Virus record (IMG/VR): IMGVR_UViG_3300031088_000782
Coordinates: 96,001 to 160,000 of that record
Source: a virus
Lineage: Duplodnaviria; Caudoviricetes
DNA: 64,000 bases
Direction: 5' to 3' (one strand)
This document shows positions 4,215 through 62,793 of the stretch, one piece after another (the stretch's first letter is position 1; every line of letters starts with the position of its first letter). Both the position numbers and the translations under genes were made by a program. Below the pieces are notes generated by a model that was not told the DNA's origin, ran no database searches, and saw only the letters and a program-made list of their open reading frames with translations.

Positions 4215-4242
4215 TTTTGTATAGATAAAGGTGGGTTTAAGA

Positions 4243-6174
4243 ATGTTTGATGAAGATTTTGATAAGAATATTCCTGAAGAGCAGAAAGAGATTTTGAAGA
4301 GATTTCGAGAGGATCTTACTTCTCAACCTATTCGTTCTCTGAATAAAGAAGAGTCAGACATCTATGCTGGAGCTGTTTTTCGTGCTCAGCAGATACTTCC
4401 CTCTTTCCGTGACGCTTTGGCTGTTCTGAGTCCTTTCATGGATGCCACATGTTCAACTGCATACACAGATCAGTATGCTCGTGTGGGGCTTTCATACTGG
4501 TTCTTCTATCTTGCTGATGCTGAAACACGATCAATGGTTGTTCTTCATGAATCTATGCACATTCTCAACAGTCACTTCGCTCGTGCTGAAACACAAAAAG
4601 TGAAGCCACGTATGATGAATTATGCTGGAGACTTTGAGATTAATACTAATCTTTACACTCTGCCTACTATCAAAAATTCTCTTGAAAACTTTTTGATTCC
4701 TTCAAAGTATGAACTTCCTGATTTCAAGACTTTTGAGCAGTATGTTTCCATGATTAAAGACAAAATGGAAGAAATTTCAAAGGATTCAGGAAATCCAAGC
4801 GATGGGGCTGAAGAAATCGATCAGGCTTCACAAAACAACGATAGTCAAAGCGGATCGGATTCTTCTTCAGGTTCGGAAAGCGGAACTGATTCGTCTTCCT
4901 CAGATGCTTCTGGATCTGACAGTGCATCTTCTGATTCTCAACAGGGAAATGACTCTGAATCCAGCGAAAGCGGAAGCTCGTCAAGTGGAGAAGGCGGAAG
5001 TGAATCATCTGATGGTTCCGGTTCATCACAATCAGGCGATAATGGCGACTCACAAGGTGGTCAAGGATCTCAGCCTTCAGGTTATGGTAATTCCTATGAT
5101 GATTATGTTCGTAAAATGAATGGCGAAGATTCTGCGGGTGGAACTGGATCATTTGAAGATCTCCTTAATGAAGAAGAAGGAAAAGGCAAGTGTGACGGAA
5201 ATCATTCTAAAGATGGTAAAGGTGAACCTTGTGATGGATCTTGCGATCATTCTTCTGAAGGCGATAATGACGGAGAAGCAGACGGCGATAGCCAGGGAAA
5301 TAATGGAAATGGTGAGCCTGAGCCTAACTCTTCAATTGACAACTACAAGCGTTCAATGAATAGTGGTGGAGCAAAGAAAAAAGTTAATCCTCCTACACGT
5401 CATTGCGATGACAGCACTGTTAAGCGTTCTGAAGCGGCTGACAAAGCTGGAATTTCTAAAGTTTCTGACATTGAACAAAATATCGCACGAAACAACACTT
5501 CTGTTCGCATTGCTGAGGAGCTTAACAGTGGAGGTCGTGGTTCAGGAGCAAGCAATGATTTCTTGAAGCTTGCTCTTAAAAGAATGTCGCCACCTAAAGT
5601 TGATTGGCGAGATCTTTTCCGAAGGGCTGTTGCTAATGCTTATAGCGCAAGTATTATGGGACAATCATACACTTCTTATAAGCGTGTGAATAGGCGATAC
5701 AGTCAGGGATCAGTTATTTTCCCCGGTACTATTGATCATTCTCCTACTGTTACTTTTGCTGTTGATACTTCAGGTTCTATGGGACAAGAAGATTTCAGAA
5801 GGCTTCTTGCAGAAATTGAGGACATTATCAAAAATGCGGCACGTCAGAAGAATTCATTGAAAGTGTTCTCAGTTGATACTACAGTTAAAGGAATCGAACC
5901 TGTTTCTTCGGTAGATAAAATCAAACTTCGTGGTGGAGGCGGAACTGATATGAGCGTTGCCTTCGCTTATGTTAATTTGATGAAAAAGAAAGAAATGCCA
6001 AACATTGTTGTTTTGGGAACAGATGGTTACACAGAGTGGAGTTCTGTTGAAAGAGAGATTCGACAGGGAAGTTACCATGCAATCATTCTTGTCACTCAAG
6101 CGAATGCAATGAATAGTGTTCCCCAATCTCTTCACTCTGTCGCGGCTGTCATTGACATTTCAGAAGATAACTGA
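4243..6174 (+). CDS. metallopeptidase-vWA protein (DUF2201-like)
   Basis: HESMH (HExxH), NYAGDFEIN, long Ser/Gly/Asp linker, vWA MIDAS VDTSGSM, GGGGTD and TDGY; ORF track start is GTG 4231. Confidence 0.85.
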   Translation: MFDEDFDKNIPEEQKEILKRFREDLTSQPIRSLNKEESDIYAGAVFRAQQILPSFRDALAVLSPFMDATCSTAYTDQYARVGLSYWFFYLADAETRSMVVLHESMHILNSHFARAETQKVKPRMMNYAGDFEINTNLYTLPTIKNSLENFLIPSKYELPDFKTFEQYVSMIKDKMEEISKDSGNPSDGAEEIDQASQNNDSQSGSDSSSGSESGTDSSSSDASGSDSASSDSQQGNDSESSESGSSSSGEGGSESSDGSGSSQSGDNGDSQGGQGSQPSGYGNSYDDYVRKMNGEDSAGGTGSFEDLLNEEEGKGKCDGNHSKDGKGEPCDGSCDHSSEGDNDGEADGDSQGNNGNGEPEPNSSIDNYKRSMNSGGAKKKVNPPTRHCDDSTVKRSEAADKAGISKVSDIEQNIARNNTSVRIAEELNSGGRGSGASNDFLKLALKRMSPPKVDWRDLFRRAVANAYSASIMGQSYTSYKRVNRRYSQGSVIFPGTIDHSPTVTFAVDTSGSMGQEDFRRLLAEIEDIIKNAARQKNSLKVFSVDTTVKGIEPVSSVDKIKLRGGGGTDMSVAFAYVNLMKKKEMPNIVVLGTDGYTEWSSVEREIRQGSYHAIILVTQANAMNSVPQSLHSVAAVIDISEDN

Positions 6175-8892: not shown

Positions 8893-8945
8893 TTGTTAGA
8901 ATATATATTGATTAATGAAAAGTTTTGGAAGGGGAAAATTTACTA

Positions 8946-11225
8946 ATGGCGAATAATGATAGAGAGCTATACTTGCAAGCACAAAGAAGGCTTGTTGCTT
9001 CCTTGGTGTATGACGGGACAAGCGCAACAAGAGTTTTCGAATTAGTTGGTCCTCAAGATGTTGATGAACCCGCGCTGGAACTTATCATTACCGCTATTAT
9101 GACTCTGGCCCGACAAGATTCAGAAATTTCCGTAATTTCTATTGGTAAAGAACTGGAAAAAGAAGGCCTTCTTGCTCAAGTTGGAGGAATTTCAGAGCTT
9201 AACGCTTTGCGTATTGAAGGCGAAAGATACAGACTTGAAGCTCCATCTGAACTTTATGCAAAAATTGTTCGAGAATCAAGCGCAAAAGACAAACTTGAAA
9301 CATTGCTTGTTGACTCTAAAGACACATTTAGGGATGATTCTGGAATGTCTGCTGTCGATGCTATCTCAAATCTTCAATCAGAACTCAGCAACGCACTCTA
9401 TGGGCTGTCAGACGATTCAACAGTGGTTGATGTAAGTGATTACATGGAAAGCTATTTTAACGTCTTAGATGAGCGTTTAAAGGTGAGTAAAGAAAATGAA
9501 GATAAGGCAGATGGTCTTCAAGGCATTCCAAGTCTTGTTCCCACTCTCAATAAGTACACAAACGGATGGCAGGCGCAACAACTTATTACAATTGGAGCGA
9601 GAACTGGTGTTGGAAAAGCTCTTTCTCTTGATACTCCGATTCCAACTCTTAGCGGTTGGACAACTATGGGAGAATTGAACATTGGGGACAAAGTTCTAGG
9701 AAGAGACGGAAAGCCAACAACTGTTGTTAATGCTACAGAAGTTCAACTTGAAAGAAAATGCTACCATGTTATTTTCAACAACGGAGAAACAATCACAGCT
9801 GATGCAGATCACAGATGGATCACTGAAACGTCTGATAGTAATGGACAGGAAAGCGTTAAAACAACACAAGAAATTTTCGAAACATTGCATAATGTAAAAG
9901 GCTCTCCAAATCATTATATTTCAGCTACTTCTCCGATTAATTTTGGATTAAAAGAGCTTCCTGTTGAACCTTACTATTTAGGATACAGAATATATCACAA
10001 TGATATCAAGGATATTTTTCCTAATTTTGATATATATGATTTGAATTCTATTGAAAAGGATTTTATTCCTGCAGTTTATTTGCGCTCTTCTGTTAATCAG
10101 AGAAAGAGTCTATTGAGGGGCATAGTTGACGGACTCAAAAAATCAAACATCTCAGATGAAATTATTCTTGAATTTGAGAAAAAAGAACTTTCTGAATCTG
10201 TTTTTGAATTACTTAGTTCATTAGGATTAATTGCTTTTATTTCTGAATCTAACAGTAAGATTGAGATTCGCTTTTCGTCTGAATCATATTTTAATCTTAT
10301 AAAAAACAAAAAGAATAACGAAAAATTTATTATTGAATCTATTGTTGAAGTTGATAGTGTTCCTGTTAGATGTATTCAAGTAGATAATGAAGATCACATG
10401 TATCTTGCTGGAAAAGCTATGGTGCCTACTCATAATACTGTTTTTGCTATTATGTCATTAGTAGCAGCGGCTCGGGCTGGAAAAGCTGTTTTGTTCTTCT
10501 CTCTGGAAATGGATTATCCTGAGATTATTGACAGAATTGTTGCTTGCATGTCAGGTGTATCTCAATCAAAACTAAAAAATGGAAGATTGAGCGAAGAGGA
10601 AGTAGAGCTTGTTGTCAAAGCGCAGACTGAACTTAAAGATTTAAAAATAATCATTGATACTGACCCTAAAGCAACTGTTGATTCTATCAGGTCCAAAGCT
10701 TTCAAAGCGGCTCAGTCACCAACTGGATTAGATATGATTATTTTGGATTATCTTCAGTTGATAACCCCTGTGGGACGTTATTCAAGCAGGCAAGAGGCTG
10801 TTTCGGACATGTCAAGAAATATGAAACTTACAGCGAAAACTTTGAATGTTCCTATTATGGTTCTTGTTCAGCTTAACAGAGCACAAGGTGACGAGGATGA
10901 TGATAAGTTACCTACTTTGGACAATATTCGTGAATCCGGAGCTATTGCTATGGACTCTGATATTGTTGTTCTTCTTCATAGAGATGCAACACAAGATGAT
11001 ACGACTCCACAGACCATAGTCATTTTAGAGAAAAACAGAGGTGGAGAGTCTAAGAAGCTTATCAGATGTCATTCTAATCTTGAATGTTCTTTATTCAGAG
11101 AAATAAAACGAGAAAAAGAAACTTCTGAAAGATTAACTGATGAAGAAATGATGGAACTGGAAGATGACATTGATTTAAGTGATTTTCCTGATCTTGATGA
11201 TGACATTGATCTGCAAGATTTGTGA
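8946..11225 (+). CDS. dnaB: replicative DNA helicase DnaB with intein
   Basis: GARTGVGK|T Walker A split by an intein; FFSLEM, IILDYLQL, VLVQLNR, RESGAIAMDSDIVVLLHR; ORF track start is TTG 8925. Confidence 0.95.
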   Translation: MANNDRELYLQAQRRLVASLVYDGTSATRVFELVGPQDVDEPALELIITAIMTLARQDSEISVISIGKELEKEGLLAQVGGISELNALRIEGERYRLEAPSELYAKIVRESSAKDKLETLLVDSKDTFRDDSGMSAVDAISNLQSELSNALYGLSDDSTVVDVSDYMESYFNVLDERLKVSKENEDKADGLQGIPSLVPTLNKYTNGWQAQQLITIGARTGVGKALSLDTPIPTLSGWTTMGELNIGDKVLGRDGKPTTVVNATEVQLERKCYHVIFNNGETITADADHRWITETSDSNGQESVKTTQEIFETLHNVKGSPNHYISATSPINFGLKELPVEPYYLGYRIYHNDIKDIFPNFDIYDLNSIEKDFIPAVYLRSSVNQRKSLLRGIVDGLKKSNISDEIILEFEKKELSESVFELLSSLGLIAFISESNSKIEIRFSSESYFNLIKNKKNNEKFIIESIVEVDSVPVRCIQVDNEDHMYLAGKAMVPTHNTVFAIMSLVAAARAGKAVLFFSLEMDYPEIIDRIVACMSGVSQSKLKNGRLSEEEVELVVKAQTELKDLKIIIDTDPKATVDSIRSKAFKAAQSPTGLDMIILDYLQLITPVGRYSSRQEAVSDMSRNMKLTAKTLNVPIMVLVQLNRAQGDEDDDKLPTLDNIRESGAIAMDSDIVVLLHRDATQDDTTPQTIVILEKNRGGESKKLIRCHSNLECSLFREIKREKETSERLTDEEMMELEDDIDLSDFPDLDDDIDLQDL
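9618..10436 (+). mobile_element. class 3 intein (273 aa) in the DnaB P-loop with degenerate LAGLIDADG remnant
   Basis: Starts ALSLDTPIPT (Ala1); DADHRW, VRCIQV and VPTHN|T supply the W-C-T triplet; endonuclease blocks degenerate (YYLGYRI, LLRGIVDG). Confidence 0.9.
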
Positions 11226-27415: not shown

Positions 27416-29122
27416 ATGACTGAAAAGAAAATGTTGAATAATTATCCAGAATTAATTTCAGAATGGGATTGGGTTAAAAATCAAAAATTAAATGTTGATG
27501 AACTTTCTTGCGGAAGCAACAAAATAGCTTGGTGGATATGCCAAAAAGGACATTCTTATGATTCAAAAATTTCGACAAGATTTAAAACTAAAGGATGTCC
27601 ATATTGCTCTAACCAAAGAATATTAGCTGGATATAATGATTTTGAAAGCCAGCAATCGGATCTTATGAAATTTTGGAATTTTTCAAAAAATACAGTAAGT
27701 CCTAAAGAAATTAGTCCAAGAAGTGGCAAAAAAGTTTGGTGGATTTGCGAAAGAGGACACGAATATCAAAGTTCACCTCATTTAGTATCCACAGGAAGAA
27801 AATGTTTGTACTGTTCAAATAAAAAAGTATTAACTGGATTCAATGATATATTAACAGTCAATCCTCTTTTACTAAATAGGTGGTCTGATCGTAATTCTCT
27901 ACCAATAACTGAATATCTTGCTGGAAGCAACAAAAAAGTTTGGTGGATTTGCAAAAAAGAGCATGAATTTGAAGCACCAATTAGAAATATGGTAAAAAAT
28001 CCTGACATTTGCGCTATTTGTTCAGGGAAAAAAGCCCTTTCTGGTTTTAACGATCTTTCTACTATAAGACCAGAGCTTTTGGAGTTCTGGGATTTTAAAA
28101 AGAACAAATATTTACCTTCAGAAGTAACAATTGGTAAATCCTCTGACAAGACTTACTTTATTTGCAAGAATAAACATTCTTTTTCTATGACTCTTGCTGA
28201 TATCAATCAAGGTAAATGGTGCTTACAATGCTCTATTGATTCTTATGTTTCAAAACCAGAAAAAGAAATTTATGAATTTTTAAAAAGTTTATTTAATGTA
28301 AACATAGAGCAATCAAGCAGATCAATCATCTCTCCTTACGAACTTGACATATATTTACCTGATTTTCAAATAGCTATTGAATTCAATGGGTTATTTTGGC
28401 ATAATGAAAAATATATGAAAATGACAAATAAAAAAAATATACAATATTACCATTTCAATAAATGGAATATGTGTAGAAAACAGGGGATTCAGCTTATCAC
28501 TGTTTGGGAGGATGATTGGCGAGATAATAGAGATGTTGTCAAAAGCATGATTGCTCATAAACTGAATTTTTCAAGTAATGCAAAAATTTATGCAAGGAAA
28601 ACTGTTGTTGAAAAAATTTCGGCAAGTGCTGCAAAAACTTTCCTCAATTCATATCATATTCAAGGATTCAAAAATGGGTGTGCGAACATTGCTTTGAAGT
28701 CTCTTGATGGAGAAATTGTCGCTGTGTCTCAATTATCTTTCAATAAGGGAGAATGTTCTATTGAAAGATATGCCACTTCGTGTAATGTTCCTGGTGGATT
28801 CACTAAAATTGTAAAATATATTGAGAAAACATATTCTGAAATTGGTTCTATTTCAACGTTTTCTGATAATGAAGTTAGTGATGGTGGTTTGTATTCGAAT
28901 AATGGCTTTGAAGTTGATTATTTTGTCCGACCTGATTATAAATACATTTATGAGAACAAACGTTTTCATAAATTCAATTTCAGAAAAATTCGTTTTGAAA
29001 AGGATCCTGAATTGTTATTTGAAAAAGATTTGACGGAAAATCAATTGGCTGATTTGAACAATATCCCCCGCATATGGGATTCAGGAAAAACGAAGTATAT
29101 AAAGAAACTCAATAGAGAATGA
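27416..29122 (+). CDS. zinc-ribbon-repeat endonuclease (4 repeats; DUF4379-like + Vsr/DUF559-like + Hef-like C-terminus)
   Basis: Repeats EW..KN..WW.C..GH..CxxC..GFND; ELDIYLP..AIEFNG.FWH; ERYAT; RIWDSGK. Confidence 0.8.
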   Translation: MTEKKMLNNYPELISEWDWVKNQKLNVDELSCGSNKIAWWICQKGHSYDSKISTRFKTKGCPYCSNQRILAGYNDFESQQSDLMKFWNFSKNTVSPKEISPRSGKKVWWICERGHEYQSSPHLVSTGRKCLYCSNKKVLTGFNDILTVNPLLLNRWSDRNSLPITEYLAGSNKKVWWICKKEHEFEAPIRNMVKNPDICAICSGKKALSGFNDLSTIRPELLEFWDFKKNKYLPSEVTIGKSSDKTYFICKNKHSFSMTLADINQGKWCLQCSIDSYVSKPEKEIYEFLKSLFNVNIEQSSRSIISPYELDIYLPDFQIAIEFNGLFWHNEKYMKMTNKKNIQYYHFNKWNMCRKQGIQLITVWEDDWRDNRDVVKSMIAHKLNFSSNAKIYARKTVVEKISASAAKTFLNSYHIQGFKNGCANIALKSLDGEIVAVSQLSFNKGECSIERYATSCNVPGGFTKIVKYIEKTYSEIGSISTFSDNEVSDGGLYSNNGFEVDYFVRPDYKYIYENKRFHKFNFRKIRFEKDPELLFEKDLTENQLADLNNIPRIWDSGKTKYIKKLNRE

Positions 29123-29179
29123 ATTGTCTAATTTGTTAAAATAATTATAAATTAATTATTGAATAAGAGGAGGGTTATT

Positions 29180-31096
29180 GTGGCTGAGAAAAAATCATTG
29201 AGCGATCATCCTTCTCTTTTGTTTGAATGGGATTATGAGAAAAATAAAAATCTTAGTCCTTCGCTTGACAAGTTTTCTGGCCGGACAAAACTTTGGTGGA
29301 AATGCAAAAAGGGACATTCTTGGGATGCTATTCTGACAAACAGGATTAATGGCTCTGGTTGTCCTTTCTGTGCTGGAAAGAGAATTCTTAAAGGTTTTAA
29401 TGATGTTTTGACTCTTAATCCAGATTTGGTCAATAATGAGTGGGATTTTGACAAAAACACCCTGTGCCCTTCTGAAATTGGATTGAACAGTTCCAAAAAA
29501 GTTTGGTGGAAATGCTTGAATTCAGATCATTCTTATGAGTCTACTACTGCTTCTCGAAAACGTGGTCGCGGTTGCCCTTATTGTACTAATAAAAAAGTCC
29601 TTATTGGATTCAATGATTTCGCTTCTCAATCTTCTGAGTTGCTGTCAGAATGGGATTTTAGCAAAAACAAAATAGATCCTACTGAAATAACTTCTGGCTC
29701 AGATAAAGCTGTTTGGTGGGTGTGCGCTAATAGTCATTCCTATAATATGTCCGCCTATAAACGCTCTATTGGCAGAGGATGCCCTGTCTGTGCTGGAAAG
29801 ACAGTTATTTTTGAAACTTCTGTAAAAGGTGACTCTCATATGTCTGAATTGTGGGATTATGAGAAGAACAGTGTTGATCCTGAATTAATATCCACAGGAA
29901 GCAATAAATTATGTTGGTGGATCGGTAAAGACTGCGGACACAGGTTTGAAAAAAGCCCTAAATTTATCAAAAACGGGTCTGAATGCCCATATTGTGCCTC
30001 TGCGAATCCACAAGTTTTAAAAGGATTTAACGATCTTCAAACTAAAGCTCCGCACTTAGTTAGGGAATGGAGTAAAAAGAACTTGTTATCCCCTTCGGAT
30101 TTCATTGCCGGATCAAAGAAAAAAGTATGGTGGGTATGTAATAAAGGACATGAATGGGAAACAGCTATCGAATATCGCTATAAAAGCCTTTCATCTTGCC
30201 CTAAATGCTCAATGAAAGGAACCTCAAAAACAGAAAAAGAAGTACAGAATTTTGTTGAGCATATTATTTCCGATAATTCTCAAATAGTTTTTAATTCTTA
30301 TCAAATAATTCCTCCACAAGAGCTTGATATTTATATTCCGTCTAAAAATATTGCGATTGAATTCAACGGGTTATATTGGCATAGCGAAATGGCAGGTAAA
30401 GATAAAAATTACCACTATGATAAATGGAAAAAGTGTCAAGATCAGGGAATACAGCTTATAACCATATGGGAAGATGACTGGAAAAACAATCGCTTAATAG
30501 TAGAATCAATGCTTAAACACAAGCTGATTTTAAGTGATACTGATAAAATTTATGCAAGAAAATCATTTTTTAAAGAAATATCTTATGTTGATGCTGAATC
30601 TTTTCTTAACAAACATCATATTCAAAAATATAAAGGTATGACTAAAAACTTTGGATTATTTGATACCCATAAAAAAGAGTTAATTGCAGTTATGTCATTT
30701 TCCAGCAAAAACAACATTTTAAGCTTAGAGCGTTATGCTACATCTGTGAATGTTGTTGGTGGATTTTCAAAAATGTTAAAGAATTCAATTAAATATTTTA
30801 AAAATAACAATCCAAATATTGATACTGTTGTAACTTTTTCTGATCATGAAGTTAGTGATGGTGAATTGTATAAGAAAAATGGGTTTGAAGTTGACTACTT
30901 GATTGATCCTGATTATAAATATATTTACAAAAATCAGCGATTTCATAAATTCAGTTTTAGGAAAATTCGATTTGAAAAAGATTCTGAATTAATATTTAAA
31001 AAAGAAATGACGGAAAAAGAATTAGCAGACCTTAATGGAATTTTTCGTATTTGGGATTCAGGAAAAACAAAGTATATAAAAATGTTAGATGCATAA
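29180..31096 (+). CDS. zinc-ribbon-repeat endonuclease (5 repeats)
   Basis: Same architecture; GTG start after gaggagg; ORF track start is 29159. Confidence 0.8.
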   Translation: MAEKKSLSDHPSLLFEWDYEKNKNLSPSLDKFSGRTKLWWKCKKGHSWDAILTNRINGSGCPFCAGKRILKGFNDVLTLNPDLVNNEWDFDKNTLCPSEIGLNSSKKVWWKCLNSDHSYESTTASRKRGRGCPYCTNKKVLIGFNDFASQSSELLSEWDFSKNKIDPTEITSGSDKAVWWVCANSHSYNMSAYKRSIGRGCPVCAGKTVIFETSVKGDSHMSELWDYEKNSVDPELISTGSNKLCWWIGKDCGHRFEKSPKFIKNGSECPYCASANPQVLKGFNDLQTKAPHLVREWSKKNLLSPSDFIAGSKKKVWWVCNKGHEWETAIEYRYKSLSSCPKCSMKGTSKTEKEVQNFVEHIISDNSQIVFNSYQIIPPQELDIYIPSKNIAIEFNGLYWHSEMAGKDKNYHYDKWKKCQDQGIQLITIWEDDWKNNRLIVESMLKHKLILSDTDKIYARKSFFKEISYVDAESFLNKHHIQKYKGMTKNFGLFDTHKKELIAVMSFSSKNNILSLERYATSVNVVGGFSKMLKNSIKYFKNNNPNIDTVVTFSDHEVSDGELYKKNGFEVDYLIDPDYKYIYKNQRFHKFSFRKIRFEKDSELIFKKEMTEKELADLNGIFRIWDSGKTKYIKMLDA

Positions 31097-45223: not shown

Positions 45224-45307
45224 TTGTTTTCATTTGATTTGATAATTGGGTAAAATTGTTATAAGCAAAATCTATAAATAAGATTTTAAAGGGAGGGTGA
45301 ATTGATA

Positions 45308-47437
45308 ATGAGAAAAAGAGTCCCAACAAAAGAACAATCTTTAGGAAATAAAATGACTCCTAAAATGTTCAATGAATGGGATTCCTCAAAAAATACAAAA
45401 TCTCCTTTTGAAATTTTTGCCGGTTCTCTTGATAAAACATATTGGATATGTTCTTATTGTGAAAATGAATGGGGAACTCCAGCAAGATCGATAAAAAATG
45501 GATCTGGATGCCCTATATGTTCTAAATACAAAAAAGGGGATATTACTAAAACCCATCCTGAACTTATGCCAGAATGGAATTCTGAAAATGGAAATCCAAG
45601 ACAGTATGGAAGCGGAAGTATGAAAATTGTAAAATGGGACTGTGTTGTGTGTTTAAATACATGGGAAGCAACCATTCCATACAAAACTCGTGGTGCCAAA
45701 TGCCCTTATTGTGAAAACAATAAAGCAATTAAAGGGTTTAATGACTTACAAACTACTCATCCTGATCTTTTAAAAGAATGGGATTATGATAAAAATATTA
45801 TCGATCCAAGTTCTCTAACTTTTAAAAACGTAACGAAAGTTTGGTGGAAGTGTGAAAAAGGGCACAATTGGGAAGCAACAATTAATCAAAGAATAATAAA
45901 AAAAACCAACTGTTCTTTTTGTAGCAATAGAAAAGTTTTGGAAGGTTTTAATGATTTAAAAAGTCAGTACCCTTTTTTGGAAAAAGAATGGGATTACAAA
46001 AAGAACAAAAATTTATTACCTTCAGAAATAGTTTTTGGATCTCATATAAAAGTTTGGTGGAAATGTAGCAAAGACCATAGTTGGAAAGCAACAATAAGCC
46101 ATAGATCTCTTGATAATTCAGGATGTCCTTATTGTTCAAAGCTGAGAACAGCAATTGGTGAAAATGATATAAAAACCATTAATCCAAACTATTTAACAGA
46201 ATGGGATTATGAAAAAAATAATATATTGCCATCAAGTGTAACTTTAAATTCGAGTAAAAAAATTTGGTGGAAGTGCAAAAAAGGACACTCTTGGCAAACA
46301 GCTGTATCAGAAAGAACAAGAGGCTATTCTTGCCCCTTTTGTAAGAATCAAAAAATACTAAAAGGATTTAATGATTTAAAAACATTGCAACCAAATCTTC
46401 TTAAAGAATGGGATTATGAAAAAAATAATGTTTTTCCTGATTGTGTTGGTCAAGGGGCGAAACAAAAAGCGCATTGGATTTGTAGTAAAAATCATGAATG
46501 GGAATCATCTATTTATCATAGAGTCTTTAATAAATCGGGCTGTCCAAATTGTTATCATTTTAACAGTACTTCAAAAAGAGAAAAAGAATTACTAAAATTT
46601 ATTCAAGAAAAACTAACTAAAAACAAAATAGTTATCTTCCCAAATGATAGAACTTTAATTCATCCTTATGAGTTGGATATTTATATTCCTGAAAAGAATA
46701 TTGCTATTGAGTTCAATGGGGTTTACTGGCATAGCGAAAAAGCCGGTAAGGATAATAGCTATCATTATAATAAATGGAAGCTATGTAAAGAAAAAGGAGT
46801 TCAACTCATCACTATTTGGGAAGACGATTGGATTAATAAACAAGACGTTATCAAGTCAATGTTAAGCCATAAATTAAACTCTTCTCAAAATGACAAAGTT
46901 TATGCCAGAAAAACAGAAATTTCAGAAATTGATTATATTACTGCAAGAAACTTTTTAGACAAAAACCATATTCAAGGATCCATGTCAGGGTCAAAATATA
47001 TTTCATTGAAACACGAAAATGAAATAGTTGCTGTATCGGTATGGAAAAAGAAAGATCCATTCACTGTATACTTAGAAAGGTATGCTACTTCAAAAATTGT
47101 TGTTGGCGGAATGGGAAAATTAATTTCTTATGTTCAAAACAATACATATGTAAATCAAAATATAGTCACTTTCGCATCCCATGAAGTTAGCAATGGAAAA
47201 CTTTATGAAGATTTAGGTTTTATTAAAGACAAAGAAATACCTCCAGATTATGCATATGTTGTCAACAGTGCAAGGAAACACAAGTTTGGATACAGAAAGT
47301 CTAAATTTGAGAAAGATCCTAATTTATTATTTGATAAGAATTTAACCGAAAAAGAATTGGCTGAATTAAATGGATTATATCGAACATGGGATTGCGGGAA
47401 AACTCGATATATCCTTCACCCTAACAGATTTAGTTAA
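45308..47437 (+). CDS. zinc-ribbon-repeat endonuclease (6 repeats)
   Basis: Same architecture as 27416 and 29180; ELDIYIP..AIEFNGVYWH; ERYAT. Confidence 0.8.
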   Translation: MRKRVPTKEQSLGNKMTPKMFNEWDSSKNTKSPFEIFAGSLDKTYWICSYCENEWGTPARSIKNGSGCPICSKYKKGDITKTHPELMPEWNSENGNPRQYGSGSMKIVKWDCVVCLNTWEATIPYKTRGAKCPYCENNKAIKGFNDLQTTHPDLLKEWDYDKNIIDPSSLTFKNVTKVWWKCEKGHNWEATINQRIIKKTNCSFCSNRKVLEGFNDLKSQYPFLEKEWDYKKNKNLLPSEIVFGSHIKVWWKCSKDHSWKATISHRSLDNSGCPYCSKLRTAIGENDIKTINPNYLTEWDYEKNNILPSSVTLNSSKKIWWKCKKGHSWQTAVSERTRGYSCPFCKNQKILKGFNDLKTLQPNLLKEWDYEKNNVFPDCVGQGAKQKAHWICSKNHEWESSIYHRVFNKSGCPNCYHFNSTSKREKELLKFIQEKLTKNKIVIFPNDRTLIHPYELDIYIPEKNIAIEFNGVYWHSEKAGKDNSYHYNKWKLCKEKGVQLITIWEDDWINKQDVIKSMLSHKLNSSQNDKVYARKTEISEIDYITARNFLDKNHIQGSMSGSKYISLKHENEIVAVSVWKKKDPFTVYLERYATSKIVVGGMGKLISYVQNNTYVNQNIVTFASHEVSNGKLYEDLGFIKDKEIPPDYAYVVNSARKHKFGYRKSKFEKDPNLLFDKNLTEKELAELNGLYRTWDCGKTRYILHPNRFS

Positions 47438-49133: not shown

Positions 49134-49206
49134 TCCCCTGTAGCTCAATTGGCAGAGCATTCGGCTGTTAACCGGAGGGTTCTTGGTTCAAGTCCAAGTG
49201 GGGGAG
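49134..49206 (+). tRNA. trnN: tRNA-Asn(GTT)
   Basis: Cloverleaf; CT-GTT-AA; U1-A72, G73. Confidence 0.95.
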
Positions 49207-50874: not shown

Positions 50875-50967
50875 CTGAATATGCAAAAATATTCATAAAT
50901 TTTTAACAAATATAACCTTTGGGAAGTAATTAAGGTTCGATTCTGTCTGTTGTATTTGTTAAATTAT

Positions 50968-51040
50968 GGGGGTATGGCGCAATTGGTAGCGCATCTGCTT
51001 TGCAAGCAGAGGGTTACGGGTTCGAGTCCCGTTATCTCCA
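50968..51040 (+). tRNA. trnA: tRNA-Ala(TGC)
   Basis: G3.U70, A73; TT-TGC-AA. Confidence 0.95.
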
Positions 51041-51041
51041 C

Positions 51042-51116
51042 AGCTGGGTAGAGAAGTTCGGTTATCTCGTCAGGTTCATATCCTGAAGATCGTGGGTTCA
51101 AATCCCACCCTAGCCA
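51042..51116 (+). tRNA. trnM: tRNA-Met(CAT), initiator-like
   Basis: A1/C72 mismatch, A11-U24; TT-CAT-AT. Confidence 0.88.
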
Positions 51117-51214
51117 CAATCTAAATCACAGGATGATTTAGCGGATTCCAGGGGTAATTCGTTAGCGTTCCATTGAAAAATGGTAGACAAGATTCTAAAA
51201 AGCAGACCCAATAT

Positions 51215-54347: not shown

Positions 54348-55421
54348 ATGAAAAGTGAAATTGATTTTTCTTGGCAAGATTTAAGTGATGAAGAATTTAT
54401 AAATCATTCTAAAAATTTTACTTCTAAAGAAAAATTTGCTCAATCCTATGGTTACAAGAAATTGAGCAAAAAACTCAATAAAAGATTTAAAAAACTTGGA
54501 ATTGATTATAAAAAGATTATTGAACCTATCTCAAAAGAAGAGTTTAAAAAGATTACTGAAGAATCGAAGTCTATTACAGAAGTGATAGATAAAATGATAG
54601 ATAATACTTCAAGCCGTAGAGCATACTATAATTTTGTTAAAAAATTGTCGAGAGATTATAATATTCCTTTGCCAAAATTTAATTACACTGAATCTGCGCG
54701 TAGGGCGTTTAAAACAGTAACGATTCCCGATGAAGAATATTTTGCTAAAAACACTCTTCGACAAGGACCAGCGACACGAAGACGTCTTATTAGAATGGGC
54801 TGGGAATATAAATGCTCTATCCCCGAATGTTTTCTTTCGCAAGATGTAGAAATTGTTGGAGAACAAGTTTTTTGGGTTGGACAATTATTAACCTTACAGG
54901 TAGATCATATTGATGGTGATCATTTAAATAATGAGTTGTCTAATTTGAGATTTCTTTGTCCAAATTGTCATTCAGCTTCTTCTACTTATGCCGGAAGAAA
55001 TAAAGTTTTCAACAATTCTTCTAAAAAGACAGAGAAAACTAATTCGTTAAATGGAAAGATAAAGTATAAGAAGAAGCCTGACAATCTTTGCGAATGTGGA
55101 ACAAAAATTTCAAGAAAAAGTAATTCTTGTATAAAATGCGAAGCTTCTAATAGAACAGGTGTATATAAGACAGATTATCCTCCACTTTCTGAAATGATTG
55201 CTAAAATTAAAGAATTAGGATATAGTGCTTATGCTAAGGAATTGGGTGTTTCTGATAATGGTATTCGGAAACATTTAAGAAGAAATAATATAAATCCTTT
55301 GCCTAAGAAAATTCATGTTTTTATTGTTAAAACTTGTATTGATTGTAATAATGAGATAAGTAACAAAACTGCTGTTCGTTGTCCTAAATGTGCTGTTGAT
55401 TTCAGGTATTATAGACAATGA
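54348..55421 (+). CDS. HNH homing endonuclease with C-terminal Zn fingers
   Basis: YKCSIPEC..LQVDHIDGDHLNNELSNLRFLCPNCHS; additional CxC/CxxC pairs. Confidence 0.88.
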   Translation: MKSEIDFSWQDLSDEEFINHSKNFTSKEKFAQSYGYKKLSKKLNKRFKKLGIDYKKIIEPISKEEFKKITEESKSITEVIDKMIDNTSSRRAYYNFVKKLSRDYNIPLPKFNYTESARRAFKTVTIPDEEYFAKNTLRQGPATRRRLIRMGWEYKCSIPECFLSQDVEIVGEQVFWVGQLLTLQVDHIDGDHLNNELSNLRFLCPNCHSASSTYAGRNKVFNNSSKKTEKTNSLNGKIKYKKKPDNLCECGTKISRKSNSCIKCEASNRTGVYKTDYPPLSEMIAKIKELGYSAYAKELGVSDNGIRKHLRRNNINPLPKKIHVFIVKTCIDCNNEISNKTAVRCPKCAVDFRYYRQ

Positions 55422-55684: not shown

Positions 55685-55830
55685 CAATCAGTGGCGAAAT
55701 ATATTGGGATACGCGGCTGTTTAGTAGCCTAAGTTTTTATAAATATGGCGAAACACGGCTATACGGTGAAACTTGCTGGGAAACTTTCAAGTGGCACTTA
55801 TGTGTGTAGGTTCGAGTCCTACCTGATTGT
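55685..55830 (+). pseudogene. 146-nt Leu-like tRNA with an insert, possible truncated group I intron
   Basis: CAATCAG/CTGATTG acceptor, Leu-type D arm, T arm; insert contains GGTGAAACTTGCTGGGAAAC. Confidence 0.5.
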
Positions 55831-56964: not shown

Positions 56965-57038
56965 TACTGTGTAGTTTAATGGCAAAACACTAGGCTCTTA
57001 AAGCTTAGCATATAAGGTTCGAATCCTAATCACAGTTG
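56965..57038 (+). tRNA. degenerate tRNA with a 9-nt loop CTCTTAAAG
   Basis: Good D arm; CTAGG/CTTAG stem; mismatched T stem. Confidence 0.45.
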
Positions 57039-58347: not shown

Positions 58348-59187
58348 ATGAAAATTGACACAACTAGATATGGTTATATTTATCGCATAACAAACTTATT
58401 AGACGGAAAGACCTATATTGGAAAACATAAGATTAAGAAAAATGAAGAGTTTTTTGACTATATGGGATCAGGAAGATTAATTTGTTATGCGATAAATAAA
58501 TATGGAATAGAAAATTTTAAGAAAGAAATTATTTGCTATACAGATTTAGATGATTCTTTATCTATTTTAGAGTATAAATATATTGATATTGAACTTTCAA
58601 ATAATAAGTCAGAATATAATATACAAAGAAGCGAAAGTTCTTTAAAAACTGTTCTTGAAAACCTTGATTTTTCTGATGAAGATTTATTAAAATGGTACTT
58701 TGAAGATGAAATGTCATACAATGATATAGCAATAAAACTTAATTGTTCTATTCCTACTATATATAATTATATGGAAAAGTTTAGACAAATTGATGAAAGA
58801 TTTAAGAATATTAAACATGGTGATAATAGGGGAAAATCTACTTGGTCTCCAGAAGCAGCTCAAAAAGGACTTAGTATTTCTAATAGAAAAATTAAATGTG
58901 AAAATTGTTCTAGACAAATAAGTTTTGCAAATTATTCTAGACATTTAAAAGCATGTTTGAATGGAACGAGCCAACATGAATGTTATTATAATAATTGCGA
59001 ACAATTAATAGGATCAAAAAGCAAATTATGTAAAAAACATTTTTTAGAATCATTAAAAAATAATGATATTAACAATTCTAAAAATTTTGGCGACAGTGTT
59101 AAACAAGGTGGAATTACAGCATCTCATAATAGATGGCATGTTAAAAGAAATATAGTTAGTGATAAATGTTCTTTATGTAAAAGTTGA
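58348..59187 (+). CDS. GIY-YIG (Seg-like) homing endonuclease
   Basis: GYIYRITNLLDGKTYIGKH..YMGSG..YGIENF..EYN; HTH; C-terminal Cys pairs. Confidence 0.88.
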   Translation: MKIDTTRYGYIYRITNLLDGKTYIGKHKIKKNEEFFDYMGSGRLICYAINKYGIENFKKEIICYTDLDDSLSILEYKYIDIELSNNKSEYNIQRSESSLKTVLENLDFSDEDLLKWYFEDEMSYNDIAIKLNCSIPTIYNYMEKFRQIDERFKNIKHGDNRGKSTWSPEAAQKGLSISNRKIKCENCSRQISFANYSRHLKACLNGTSQHECYYNNCEQLIGSKSKLCKKHFLESLKNNDINNSKNFGDSVKQGGITASHNRWHVKRNIVSDKCSLCKS

Positions 59188-61484: not shown

Positions 61485-61555
61485 GCAAGTGTAGTTTATT
61501 GGTAAAACACCTGCGCTCCAGCAGGAAAAGTAAGTTCGATTCTTACCGCTTTGCT
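61485..61555 (+). tRNA. Gly-like tRNA with a 6-nt anticodon loop
   Basis: CCTGC-GCTCCA-GCAGG; extra nucleotide in acceptor; U73. Confidence 0.5.
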
Positions 61556-61878: not shown

Positions 61879-62039
61879 AAGAATAGTGATCCATGTTGGT
61901 AGAGATAGGGCACTAATGACCTAAGTTTTGTATAAGATGTTATTCAAAATATGGCGTGAATGTCCTAAAAGATGTAAAATAAAATGAAAAGATTATGGAT
62001 GCAGTCTTATACACGCAGGTTCGATTCCTGTTATTCTTT
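61879..62039 (+). ncRNA. 161-nt elongated tRNA-like RNA
   Basis: AAGAATA/TATTCTT acceptor, T arm, 10-bp internal stem. Confidence 0.5.
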
Positions 62040-62048
62040 AATTATTTT

Positions 62049-62133
62049 GGAAGTGTGGCTGAGCGGCTTAAGGCACTCGCTTGGAAAGCGAGCATAGGTA
62101 ACACTATCGCAGGTTCAAATCCTGTCACTTCCG
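62049..62133 (+). tRNA. trnS: tRNA-Ser(GGA)
   Basis: TT-GGA-AA; variable arm; G73. Confidence 0.94.
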
Positions 62134-62183
62134 CGTTTATGAATATTTAAAATAATATTATTGAATATTTTCATAAATAATAT

Positions 62184-62257
62184 GGGGATGTTGCATAATG
62201 GTAGTGCCTCTGCCTTCCAAGCAGACGGTGCGGGTTCGATTCCCGTCATCCCCTCCA
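62184..62257 (+). tRNA. trnG: tRNA-Gly(TCC) with encoded CCA
   Basis: CT-TCC-AA; U73-CCA. Confidence 0.94.
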
Positions 62258-62406
62258 GGGACGCGTGAACATTAAATTAAGTCCAAGTTGCGATGGATAC
62301 TGGTTTAGTGCTGTTACACTAATATTTTAGACCGCTAATCTAAAATTCGAAATTCAGGACAGAAATGTTGCTGATACTTGGGATTCGATACCCAAGCGTT
62401 CCACCA
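62258..62406 (+). ncRNA. 149-nt tRNA-like RNA with Ala identity and encoded CCA
   Basis: GGGACGC/GCGTTCC (G3.U70), A73-CCA, T arm TTGGG/CCCAA. Confidence 0.65.
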
Positions 62407-62468
62407 ATTTAAAACAATGAAATAATATTGTTAAAATTCTTGTTCATACATTTTACAAGAACAAATAT

Positions 62469-62541
62469 GGGGGTTTAGCTCATCCGGTAGAGCATCTGCT
62501 TTGCAAGCAGAAGGTGAGGGGTTCAAGTCCCCTAACCTCCA
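62469..62541 (+). tRNA. trnA: tRNA-Ala(TGC)
   Basis: G3.U70; TT-TGC-AA. Confidence 0.95.
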
Positions 62542-62542
62542 C

Positions 62543-62617
62543 AGCTGTGTAGAGAAGTTCGGTTATCTCGTCAGGTTCATATCCTGAAGATCGTGGGTTC
62601 AAATCCCACTCTAACCA
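62543..62617 (+). pseudogene. tRNA-Met(CAT) copy with a disrupted acceptor stem
   Basis: Body identical to 51042; acceptor AGCTGTG/TCTAACC has 3 mismatches. Confidence 0.7.
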
Positions 62618-62645
62618 CGATTGTCAAAAAATATTGAAAAATAAT

Positions 62646-62793
62646 TTGACAATAATTATTAATTATGCTAAGATTAACTTGTTAAATCAAATTGAGGACT
62701 TATCAAGAAGATAACGAGATTATAGATTTGACAAGCGTTAAAAAATAGTTTATAATTAATAATATAAAGCGGTTTGGAAACTTAATAGTGGAA
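62646..62793 (+). promoter_or_regulatory. tandem P1/P2 promoters with a conserved spacer motif and boxA-like leader
   Basis: TTGACA-17-TAAGAT; TTGAGGACTT motif; TTGACA-17-TATAAT; GCGGTTTGGAAACTTAATAGTGGAA. Confidence 0.7.

Follow-up and report, generated by a model that had tools for sequence, protein, structure and literature searches.

The stretch of DNA analysed here (the window) comprises 64,000 nucleotides (nt), bases 96001-160000 of the 309,534-bp IMG/VR virus record IMGVR_UViG_3300031088_000782. From position 49134 onward it carries an array of tRNA genes, all on the plus strand, with 57 tRNAs inside the window, 66 in total and a canonical transfer-messenger RNA (tmRNA) at the end. Lodged in this array is an element of 149 nt, present as a single copy in the 309-kb record, which the initial annotation had described as a mini tmRNA-like molecule with alanine identity. 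Judged from its sequence, we take it to be a genuine gene for a small RNA that selection has maintained in a giant phage, and on every feature tested it is not a tmRNA. The parts of the element and the tRNA gene that precedes it are given below in window coordinates, with pair probabilities from the predicted fold (MFE, minimum free energy).

62184..62257, plus strand: tRNA-Gly(UCC) with an encoded CCA (ARAGORN; Rfam tRNA model, 67.7 bits), its 3' end abutting the 149-nt element.
62258..62406, plus strand: the whole 149-nt tRNA-shaped RNA gene (fold z = -3.1; single copy; ~95%-identical copies on contigs of three other sequencing runs).
62258..62264, plus strand: 5' strand of the acceptor stem, GGGACGC, with G3 at 62260 (7/7 pairing; pair probabilities 0.87-1.0).
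62265..62317, plus strand: arm A (element 8-60) in the place of a D arm, made of a 4-bp base helix, a 10-bp helix, a 5-bp helix and the apical loop AGUUGCGA (MFE and centroid folds; probabilities 0.56-0.86).
62324..62346, plus strand: arm B (element 67-89) in the place of an anticodon arm, an 8-bp hairpin with the 7-nt loop CCGCUAA (probabilities 0.75-0.98).
62354..62374, plus strand: arm C (element 97-117) in the place of a long variable arm, a bulged 8-bp hairpin (probabilities 0.69-0.92).
62378..62395, plus strand: T-like arm (element 121-138), a 5-bp stem UUGGG/CCCAA with the 8-nt loop AUUCGAUA, ACUCGAUA in relatives (probabilities 0.75-0.93).
62396..62406, plus strand: 3' strand of the acceptor stem, GCGUUCC (U70 at 62400), followed by A73 at 62403 and the encoded CCA at 62404-62406 (read from the sequence).

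The ends of the element proved to be as the initial annotation had described them. Its first base, 62258, directly follows the CCA of tRNA-Gly(UCC) at 62184-62257, and GGGACGC pairs over all seven positions with GCGTTCC (62396-62402), including the G3·U70 wobble, with A73 and a genome-encoded CCA behind it. The alanine identity set (G1-C72, G2-C71, G3·U70, A73 and CCA) is thus present on a coaxial stack of the acceptor/T type. By chance, seven pairs at a fixed place would be expected with a probability of ~0.0014, and ACCA at a fixed place with ~0.0028. A census of the array also agreed with the claim that the element holds one of only two encoded CCAs, since among the 66 tRNAs called by ARAGORN an unambiguous encoded CCA was found only in the tRNA-Gly at 62184, one tRNA-Met outside the window being ambiguous in register. 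G3·U70 is exclusive too: apart from the 149-nt element, no gene of the whole array has it other than the tmRNA and the two genes for tRNA-Ala, so that the count among the 64 non-alanine tRNAs is 0. A gene for a CCA-adding enzyme also lies within the array (L002:8131-9567, equal to G000 168131-169567), which fits the near-absence of encoded CCA among the phage's tRNAs.

The RNA folds at -41 kcal/mol (z = -3.1), and only one of 200 dinucleotide shuffles was as good. Both the MFE and the centroid fold are a five-way junction of acceptor stem, arms A, B and C and T-like arm, with pair probabilities mostly between 0.6 and 0.98. The topology is that of a class II tRNA cloverleaf, but the lengths of linkers and stems are wrong: an arm of 53 nt replaces the D arm, and the stem of arm B is 3 bp too long for an anticodon arm, with a C at the equivalent of position 33. 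No D stem is detectable, as had been noted before, and a usable anticodon arm is missing as well. The T arm that had been reported stood up in its 5-bp stem but not in its loop, which has 8 nt (AUUCGAUA) rather than the canonical 7 nt and carries a C at the would-be T54 position in three close relatives. One of the two interior hairpins that had been proposed, UUUUAGA/UCUAAAA, is real, with pair probabilities of 0.75-0.98. The other, TTAGTG/CACTAA, and the GTCC/GGAC helix said to enclose both have ensemble probabilities of about 0, and the natural variant U63>C breaks the former. That interior fold evaluates to -2.5 kcal/mol, compared with -41 kcal/mol for the supported one.

A search of sequencing runs identified the probable source sample, which is from the phyllosphere, and showed that many other samples share part of the stretch; contigs from three runs of different studies span the element at ~95% identity (X3, 62228-62565; X4, 61917-62566; X8, 62265-62617). 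A further run, X2, gave no cover of the element and is not counted as evidence here. The X4 contig (657 nt, from another sample) keeps the gene order tRNA-Ser, tRNA-Gly, element, tRNA-Ala. The variable sites considered here are those among the differences listed for these three contigs, and they respect the helices. C5>U, seen in one relative only, turns a C-G pair of the acceptor stem into U·G and keeps the pairing; U32>A, G35>A and A36>U all lie within the loop at the tip of arm A; the junction contains U63>C and U66>C; and U127>C (T>C at 62384, in X3, X4 and X8) is in the T loop. Six of the seven listed sites are therefore unpaired and the seventh is compatible with pairing (hypergeometric P = 0.010), and all four natural haplotypes have the same MFE fold. 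None of the listed differences falls in the 60-nt block of arms B and C in the three relatives, and no indel is listed within the element, while several fall in the flanking spacers.

In the comparison with tmRNAs, the Rfam tmRNA model RF00023 gave the element 4.6 bits (E = 1.7), over its last 27 nt only. The positive controls for the same model were the tag-less tmRNA of mycobacteriophage DS6A, at 43.2 bits (E = 1.6e-17), and the phage's own tmRNA, at 133.4 bits. ARAGORN called no tmRNA, not even with its threshold set to 80%, and a permissive Rfam scan returned nothing, so that the proposal of a mini tmRNA failed in these searches. The phage's own tmRNA is a separate gene 20 kb downstream.

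G000 178464-178816 (82464-82816 on the window scale, outside the window; L003), plus strand: full-length one-piece tmRNA of the phage (133.4 bits).

The tag of this tmRNA is ANANKNAYALAA, its T loop is canonical and its D-loop-analog motif is present; CCA is not encoded. A split tmRNA was also considered and rejected, as the phage tmRNA is one intact piece. Like canonical one-piece tmRNAs (RF00023), including the phage's own, the element has the alanine identity set, with G3·U70 and A73 on its acceptor stem, and it lies in the same tRNA array region. It differs in being less than half as long and in having an encoded CCA, which the phage tmRNA does not. The D-loop-analog motif GGnnUCGAC, present in both DS6A and the phage tmRNA, is absent from the element, as are a P2 helix closing the interior and a conserved resume codon or tag. 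The junction is five-way rather than three-way, and in place of a canonical 7-nt T loop (UUCRANY) there is an 8-nt loop, ACUCGAUA in the three relatives. The sole tag-like frame (GCG AUG GAU ... CAC UAA, element 33-65) is buried in helices, and U63>C turns its stop into CAA in all three relatives, extending and changing the end of the peptide.

In our assessment, tag-less alanine-type tRNA mimics of phages are a known kind, exemplified by DS6A, and one that is barely studied. Tag-less forms of tmRNA similar to that of DS6A occur in jakobid mitochondria and in some plastids. The DS6A tmRNA (JN698994 28478-28560) resembles the element in being phage-encoded, with a G3·U70 acceptor stem, A73 and a T arm and with neither an anticodon nor a conserved tag frame, and both RNAs could in principle take alanine and bind the factors that recognise the tRNA-like domain of tmRNA. 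DS6A differs in its 83-nt length, three-way junction, D-loop-analog motif GGUGGUCGAC, P2 helix, 7-nt T loop and score of 43.2 bits; the element, by contrast, has 149 nt, a five-way junction, an 8-nt T loop, an encoded CCA and 4.6 bits, and coexists with a full-length phage tmRNA. The DS6A RNA has been described as little more than a tRNA-like domain and as an inhibitor of tmRNA in E. coli, where titration of SmpB may be the mechanism (PMC4131195; PMC11915505). What is new in the element is its size, its architecture, the encoded CCA, the non-canonical T loop and the coexistence with a full phage tmRNA.

The element does not belong to the tRNA family either. RF00005 had no match to it even at E<=10, Rfam returned nothing at gathering or permissive thresholds, and ARAGORN made no tRNA call with or without introns or at an 80% threshold. 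The combination of D arm, 5-bp anticodon stem, 7-nt loop with U33 and T arm that marks a tRNA was not found. With tRNA-Ala and alanine minihelices it shares G1-C72, G2-C71, G3·U70, A73 and CCA on a coaxial stack of 7+5 bp; unlike tRNA-Ala, it lacks both a D arm and an anticodon arm with UGC/GGC, and it contains an unrelated structured insert of ~110 nt and an 8-nt T loop. There is no detectable sequence similarity to the tRNA-Ala genes of the array. In a MAFFT alignment, tRNA-Ser(GCU) falls opposite arms B and C and the T arm, and A3>G is all that separates the upper part of the element's acceptor stem from that of the array's tRNA-Ser. An origin from tRNA-Ser(GCU) was nevertheless rejected, as the local similarity of the element to any of the 66 tRNAs lies within the shuffled null (P = 0.14-0.45). 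No significant complementary sequence that might act as an antisense partner was found in the 309-kb record.

Related arrays were reached through a gene for a TilS-like lysidine synthase without the usual substrate-binding domain, which lies within the array 2.4 kb downstream of the element (L002:798-1766, equal to G000 160798-161766). Its homologs form a series that falls stepwise from 89% to 50% identity, the contigs that carry them reach 728 kb (728, 698, 543 and 184 kb), and these contigs probably represent a clade of very large phages; a TilS alignment search in viral contigs yielded only relatives of 28-29% identity. The WhiB of one relative, together with the actinobacterial affinities of TilS, hints at an actinobacterial host. 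The arrays of these relatives hold the following genes other than standard tRNAs.

L026:17314-17745 and L031:17976-18398: GOLLD RNA in tRNA arrays (231 and 233 bits).
L025:14984-15167: manA RNA in a tRNA array (59.5 bits).
L024:1358-1442: small signal recognition particle (SRP) RNA abutting a tRNA-Val (40.5 bits).
L031:14919-16487: gene for a TROVE (Ro60/Rsr-like) protein in the tRNA array of a relative.
L024:547-669 and L031:6729-6851: 123-nt alanine-type RNA with a G3·U70/A73 acceptor, a D-like hairpin, three further hairpins and a T arm.
L025:2723-2785: 63-nt alanine-type tRNA-like gene with normal D and T arms and an anticodon stem capped by a 3-nt loop.

Non-tRNA cargo is therefore normal in the arrays of this clade, and GOLLD and manA RNAs are like the element in being non-tRNA RNA genes among phage tRNAs. 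YrlA, a Y RNA bound by Ro/Rsr, is like it in mimicking part of a tRNA; its ends form the Ro-binding stem, however, whereas those of the element form an acceptor stem with CCA. The element has no Rfam match, and no TROVE domain was found in the 309-kb record, in contrast to the relative L031.

All fetched arrays were scanned for acceptors with G1-G2-G3·U70 and A73 beside a T arm, and this returned only tRNA-Ala genes, the tmRNA and the odd elements that had escaped gene calling, namely the 149-nt element, the 123-nt RNA and the 63-nt RNA. The two copies of the 123-nt RNA, in L024 and L031, are orthologous, with six helix pairs changed on both sides in a compensatory manner. Two of its hairpin loops, UAGUGA and UCACUA/G, are complementary and nearly invariant, which suggests a kissing interaction between them. 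It has no Rfam match above threshold, we found no earlier description of it, and outside the clade a core scan of viral contigs gave 0 matches and 22 loci in genome contigs were all rejected by R1, a covariance model built from L024 and L031. Like the element, the 123-nt RNA lies in a tRNA array upstream of the TilS-like gene, with the same identity set, a multi-hairpin body and no anticodon; it also has an 8-nt apical loop, AGUAGUGA as compared with AGUUGCGA or AGUAGCAU in the element, and a complementary loop in a later hairpin. It differs in the order of its arms, its D-like hairpin, its canonical T loop and the lack of an encoded CCA. The loop of arm A in the element resembles a loop of the 123-nt RNA, and the loop of arm B is partly complementary to it; this motif would be a lead, and only that, towards common descent of the two RNAs. 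The acceptor of the 63-nt RNA differs from a tRNA-Ser acceptor by A3>G and G73>A only, and the L025 locus has 54 tRNAs, none of which was called as a canonical tRNA-Ala. What appears to recur across the clade is thus a shared type, with one non-decoding alanine-type RNA in each portion of array examined, and no demonstrable family.

Our leading reading, which we hold tentatively, is that the element is a processed, probably alanine-chargeable, non-decoding mimic of tRNA that acts through proteins binding its acceptor end. It would be transcribed together with the surrounding tRNA array. Acceptor/T-stem minihelices are substrates of RNase P, and RNase P should cut between 62257 and 62258 because such stacks with CCA are substrates. 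This would free the 5' end of the element and complete the CCA end of tRNA-Gly, and because the 3' end of tRNA-Gly abuts the element, the single cut would finish both molecules; the element's own 3' end would be the ACCA encoded in the genome. A G3·U70 acceptor minihelix is reportedly sufficient for alanylation by alanyl-tRNA synthetase (AlaRS) (Hou & Schimmel 1988; Francklyn & Schimmel 1989), so the host AlaRS should charge the element through its 12-bp acceptor/T-type stack with the full alanine identity set, and alanine charging, taken by itself, is something we would on balance expect. The predicted structure could not decode: three of the arms at its five-way junction are not those of a tRNA, it lacks a D arm and U33, and its "anticodon" stem is too long. 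We suggest that proteins which bind tRNA-Ala or tmRNA by the acceptor end are either occupied by the element or make use of it, and it may be a decoy or a cofactor.

Phage tRNA arrays are usually read as a codon supply or as reservoirs of tRNAs against host defences. In the element, the marks for alanine charging and a ready CCA are kept and the decoding parts are lost, which suggests that aminoacylation or tRNA mimicry is put to use beyond normal translation. DS6A, the only relative of this kind to have been studied, turns off ribosome rescue; the element is built otherwise and coexists with a full phage tmRNA, and so it may act on another target.

Several observations weigh against reading the element as an acceptor-end mimic. 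The non-canonical T loop, with its 8 nt and its C at the T54 position in relatives, might impair recognition by RNase P or EF-Tu. The contrast in substitution rate with the spacers is weak (4.7% in X3 compared with 8.6-10.3%, with Fisher P values of 0.10 and 0.035; no significant difference in X8; overall range of P 0.035 to 0.34), and because every copy found is ~95% identical, there is no true covariation. No homolog beyond the close relatives was found, with 0 matches in viral contigs to exact and degenerate patterns of the 3' end. The 309-kb record lacks all of the partner genes sought, namely smpB, alaS (AlaRS), a FemAB-type transferase and Ro/TROVE. Homology of the element to the 123-nt RNA was rejected, since the R1 model misses the element even at E<=10. 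Other searches also ended empty: a pattern of the two ends gave 0 matches in metagenome contigs, and the 20-mer GATACCCAAGCRTTCCACCA gave 0 in genome contigs and five loci in metagenomes, all of them chance matches with neither a T arm nor further similarity. The contig of the 89%-identical relative (L018) begins about 185 nt 3' of the element.

Among the other explanations we rank next, though as doubtful, a structured noncoding RNA whose function lies in arms A-C, with the acceptor/T-like module serving as a handle for processing and stability (RNase P entry and a protected CCA end) and the alanine identity being incidental. The clade's habit of placing GOLLD, manA and SRP RNAs flush against tRNAs speaks for it, as do the lack of listed differences in the B and C block and the departure of the T loop from the tRNA consensus. 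G3·U70, A73 and an encoded CCA are unlikely to have come together incidentally, however, given how rare the first and last are in this array, and the 309-kb record offered no complementary target or antisense partner. We consider it unlikely that the element is instead a minimal, tag-less tmRNA that binds SmpB, either to rescue ribosomes without tagging or to block host trans-translation by titrating SmpB as DS6A may do. An alanine identity set and a missing anticodon are common to the tRNA-like domains of tmRNAs, and inhibition of tmRNA in E. coli by DS6A provides a precedent (PMC4131195, PMC11915505), but the element's RF00023 score is far below those of both controls, and the missing D-loop-analog motif, the lack of a closing P2 helix, the five-way junction, the non-canonical T loop and the buried frame whose stop is lost in relatives all argue otherwise. 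The same phage also encodes a full tmRNA with a textbook tag, and a decoy inhibiting SmpB would oppose that tmRNA. We give a similarly low chance to a decaying, functionless remnant of a duplicated tRNA, tRNA-Ala or tmRNA, kept inside a transcribed array. The lack of a detectable homolog past the ~95%-identical relatives, the degenerate T loop, the weak rate contrast and the presence of other odd tRNA-like pieces in the array are all in keeping with decay. The perfect acceptor stem, the exact abutment to the upstream CCA, the encoded CCA, the unusually stable fold, the avoidance of helices by variable sites and the lack of listed indels where neighbouring spacers have them are not, and comparison with the tRNAs of the array detected no leftover sequence similarity.

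Two further explanations come last. An alanine carrier for non-ribosomal transfer, such as Fem/MurM-type branching of the cell wall, synthesis of alanyl-phosphatidylglycerol or another transferase that depends on aminoacyl-tRNA, would have a non-tRNA body that keeps it away from the ribosome. Gram-positive bacteria are known to use non-proteinogenic tRNAs in building the cell wall, the predicted combination of a chargeable alanine acceptor end with a body unable to decode would suit such a role, and the phage encodes a transglycosylase/transpeptidase of the penicillin-binding protein (PBP) type with a PASTA domain; however, no FemAB-family gene was found in the 309-kb record and no transferase lies beside the element, and we regard this role as highly improbable. 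Hardly credible at all is an aberrant decoding tRNA in which the arm B loop CCGCUAA presents a GCU anticodon and alanine is inserted at AGY serine codons. The cloverleaf topology does recall a class II tRNA, and the 7-nt loop differs from that of tRNA-Ser(GCU) at position 33 only, but that difference is a C, the stem has 8 bp rather than 5 bp, the linkers are long, a D arm is missing and the T loop is non-canonical, and the element is neither significantly similar to tRNA-Ser or any other tRNA nor scored by Rfam or ARAGORN at lax thresholds.

A wider form of the acceptor-end mimic reading would extend it to the clade, each giant phage keeping one non-decoding, alanine-chargeable mimic (149, 123 or 63 nt, with different bodies). 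These would form a new class of effector RNA, either decoys for host factors or for abortive-infection toxins that target acceptor ends, or tag-less RNAs for ribosome rescue or alanine donation beside the phage tmRNA. We think this generalisation improbable as it stands; if it is true that several giant phages each keep one such RNA, it would be a testable new player in the phage takeover of the host translation apparatus.

The phage itself appears to be larger than its record. An ENA contig of 681,645 bp carries the window's DNA at 100% identity over 20.8 kb, and judging from this match the 309-kb "provirus" record covers only part of a much larger entity. A check of the phage DNA found no 16S rRNA. 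The Pfam models Terminase_6C and HK97 capsid had 0 matches in the 309-kb record, so that its identification as a phage is based on the IMG/VR class and the gene content. Within the window, the first 48 kb form a replication and recombination module with a UvsX/RecA-like protein, DnaB with an intein, a clamp, a Dda-like helicase, SbcD, a class Ib ribonucleotide reductase and a RecG-like protein; this part also encodes the PBP-type protein with the PASTA domain, and many homing endonuclease genes are interspersed in the module.

8925-11225: DnaB with an intein-like insert.
4231-6174, 27416-31096, 45302-47437, 54348-55421 and 58348-59187: HNH or GIY-YIG homing endonuclease genes, at least six, scattered over the replication module and the tRNA array.

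Close relatives of the RecG-like protein are absent from viral contigs, and its matches in GenBank phages have only ~33% identity. A blastn search of the phage tmRNA against phages gave no match, and the three proteins neighbouring the 149-nt element are singletons in 90% clusters.

Other unusual features lie in the tRNA array. A pair of tRNA-Ala and tRNA-Met genes is duplicated at 88% identity, 11.5 kb apart (50962-51120 and 62463-62621), the second copy lying just 3' of the 149-nt element. A tRNA with anticodon UUA, which reads the UAA stop, is found at 56966-57037 (31 bits with the tRNA model), and at 61485-61554 there is a tRNA-like gene whose called "anticodon" has 2 nt; these are possible suppressor or aberrant tRNAs. 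Two long elements without a gene call, at 55685-55830 (146 nt) and 61879-62039 (161 nt), are closed by a 7-bp stem with a canonical T arm. The motifs CCUAAGUUU and AAAUAUGGCG are common to both, a hairpin resembling an anticodon arm is followed by a large insert in each, and they are possibly paralogous tRNA-like RNAs. The 149-nt element was considered as a further paralog and rejected, as it shares only a short motif with them. Strong sigma-70-like promoters, one with a 12/12 match, recur in the spacers of the array (62646-62674 and 62728-62756), as does a repeat family with a ...TTTGACAA motif (52506, 53309, 59428, 60243, 60339 and 63828). Together, the spacer promoters and the repeated motif suggest that the array has many internal promoters rather than one long transcript.

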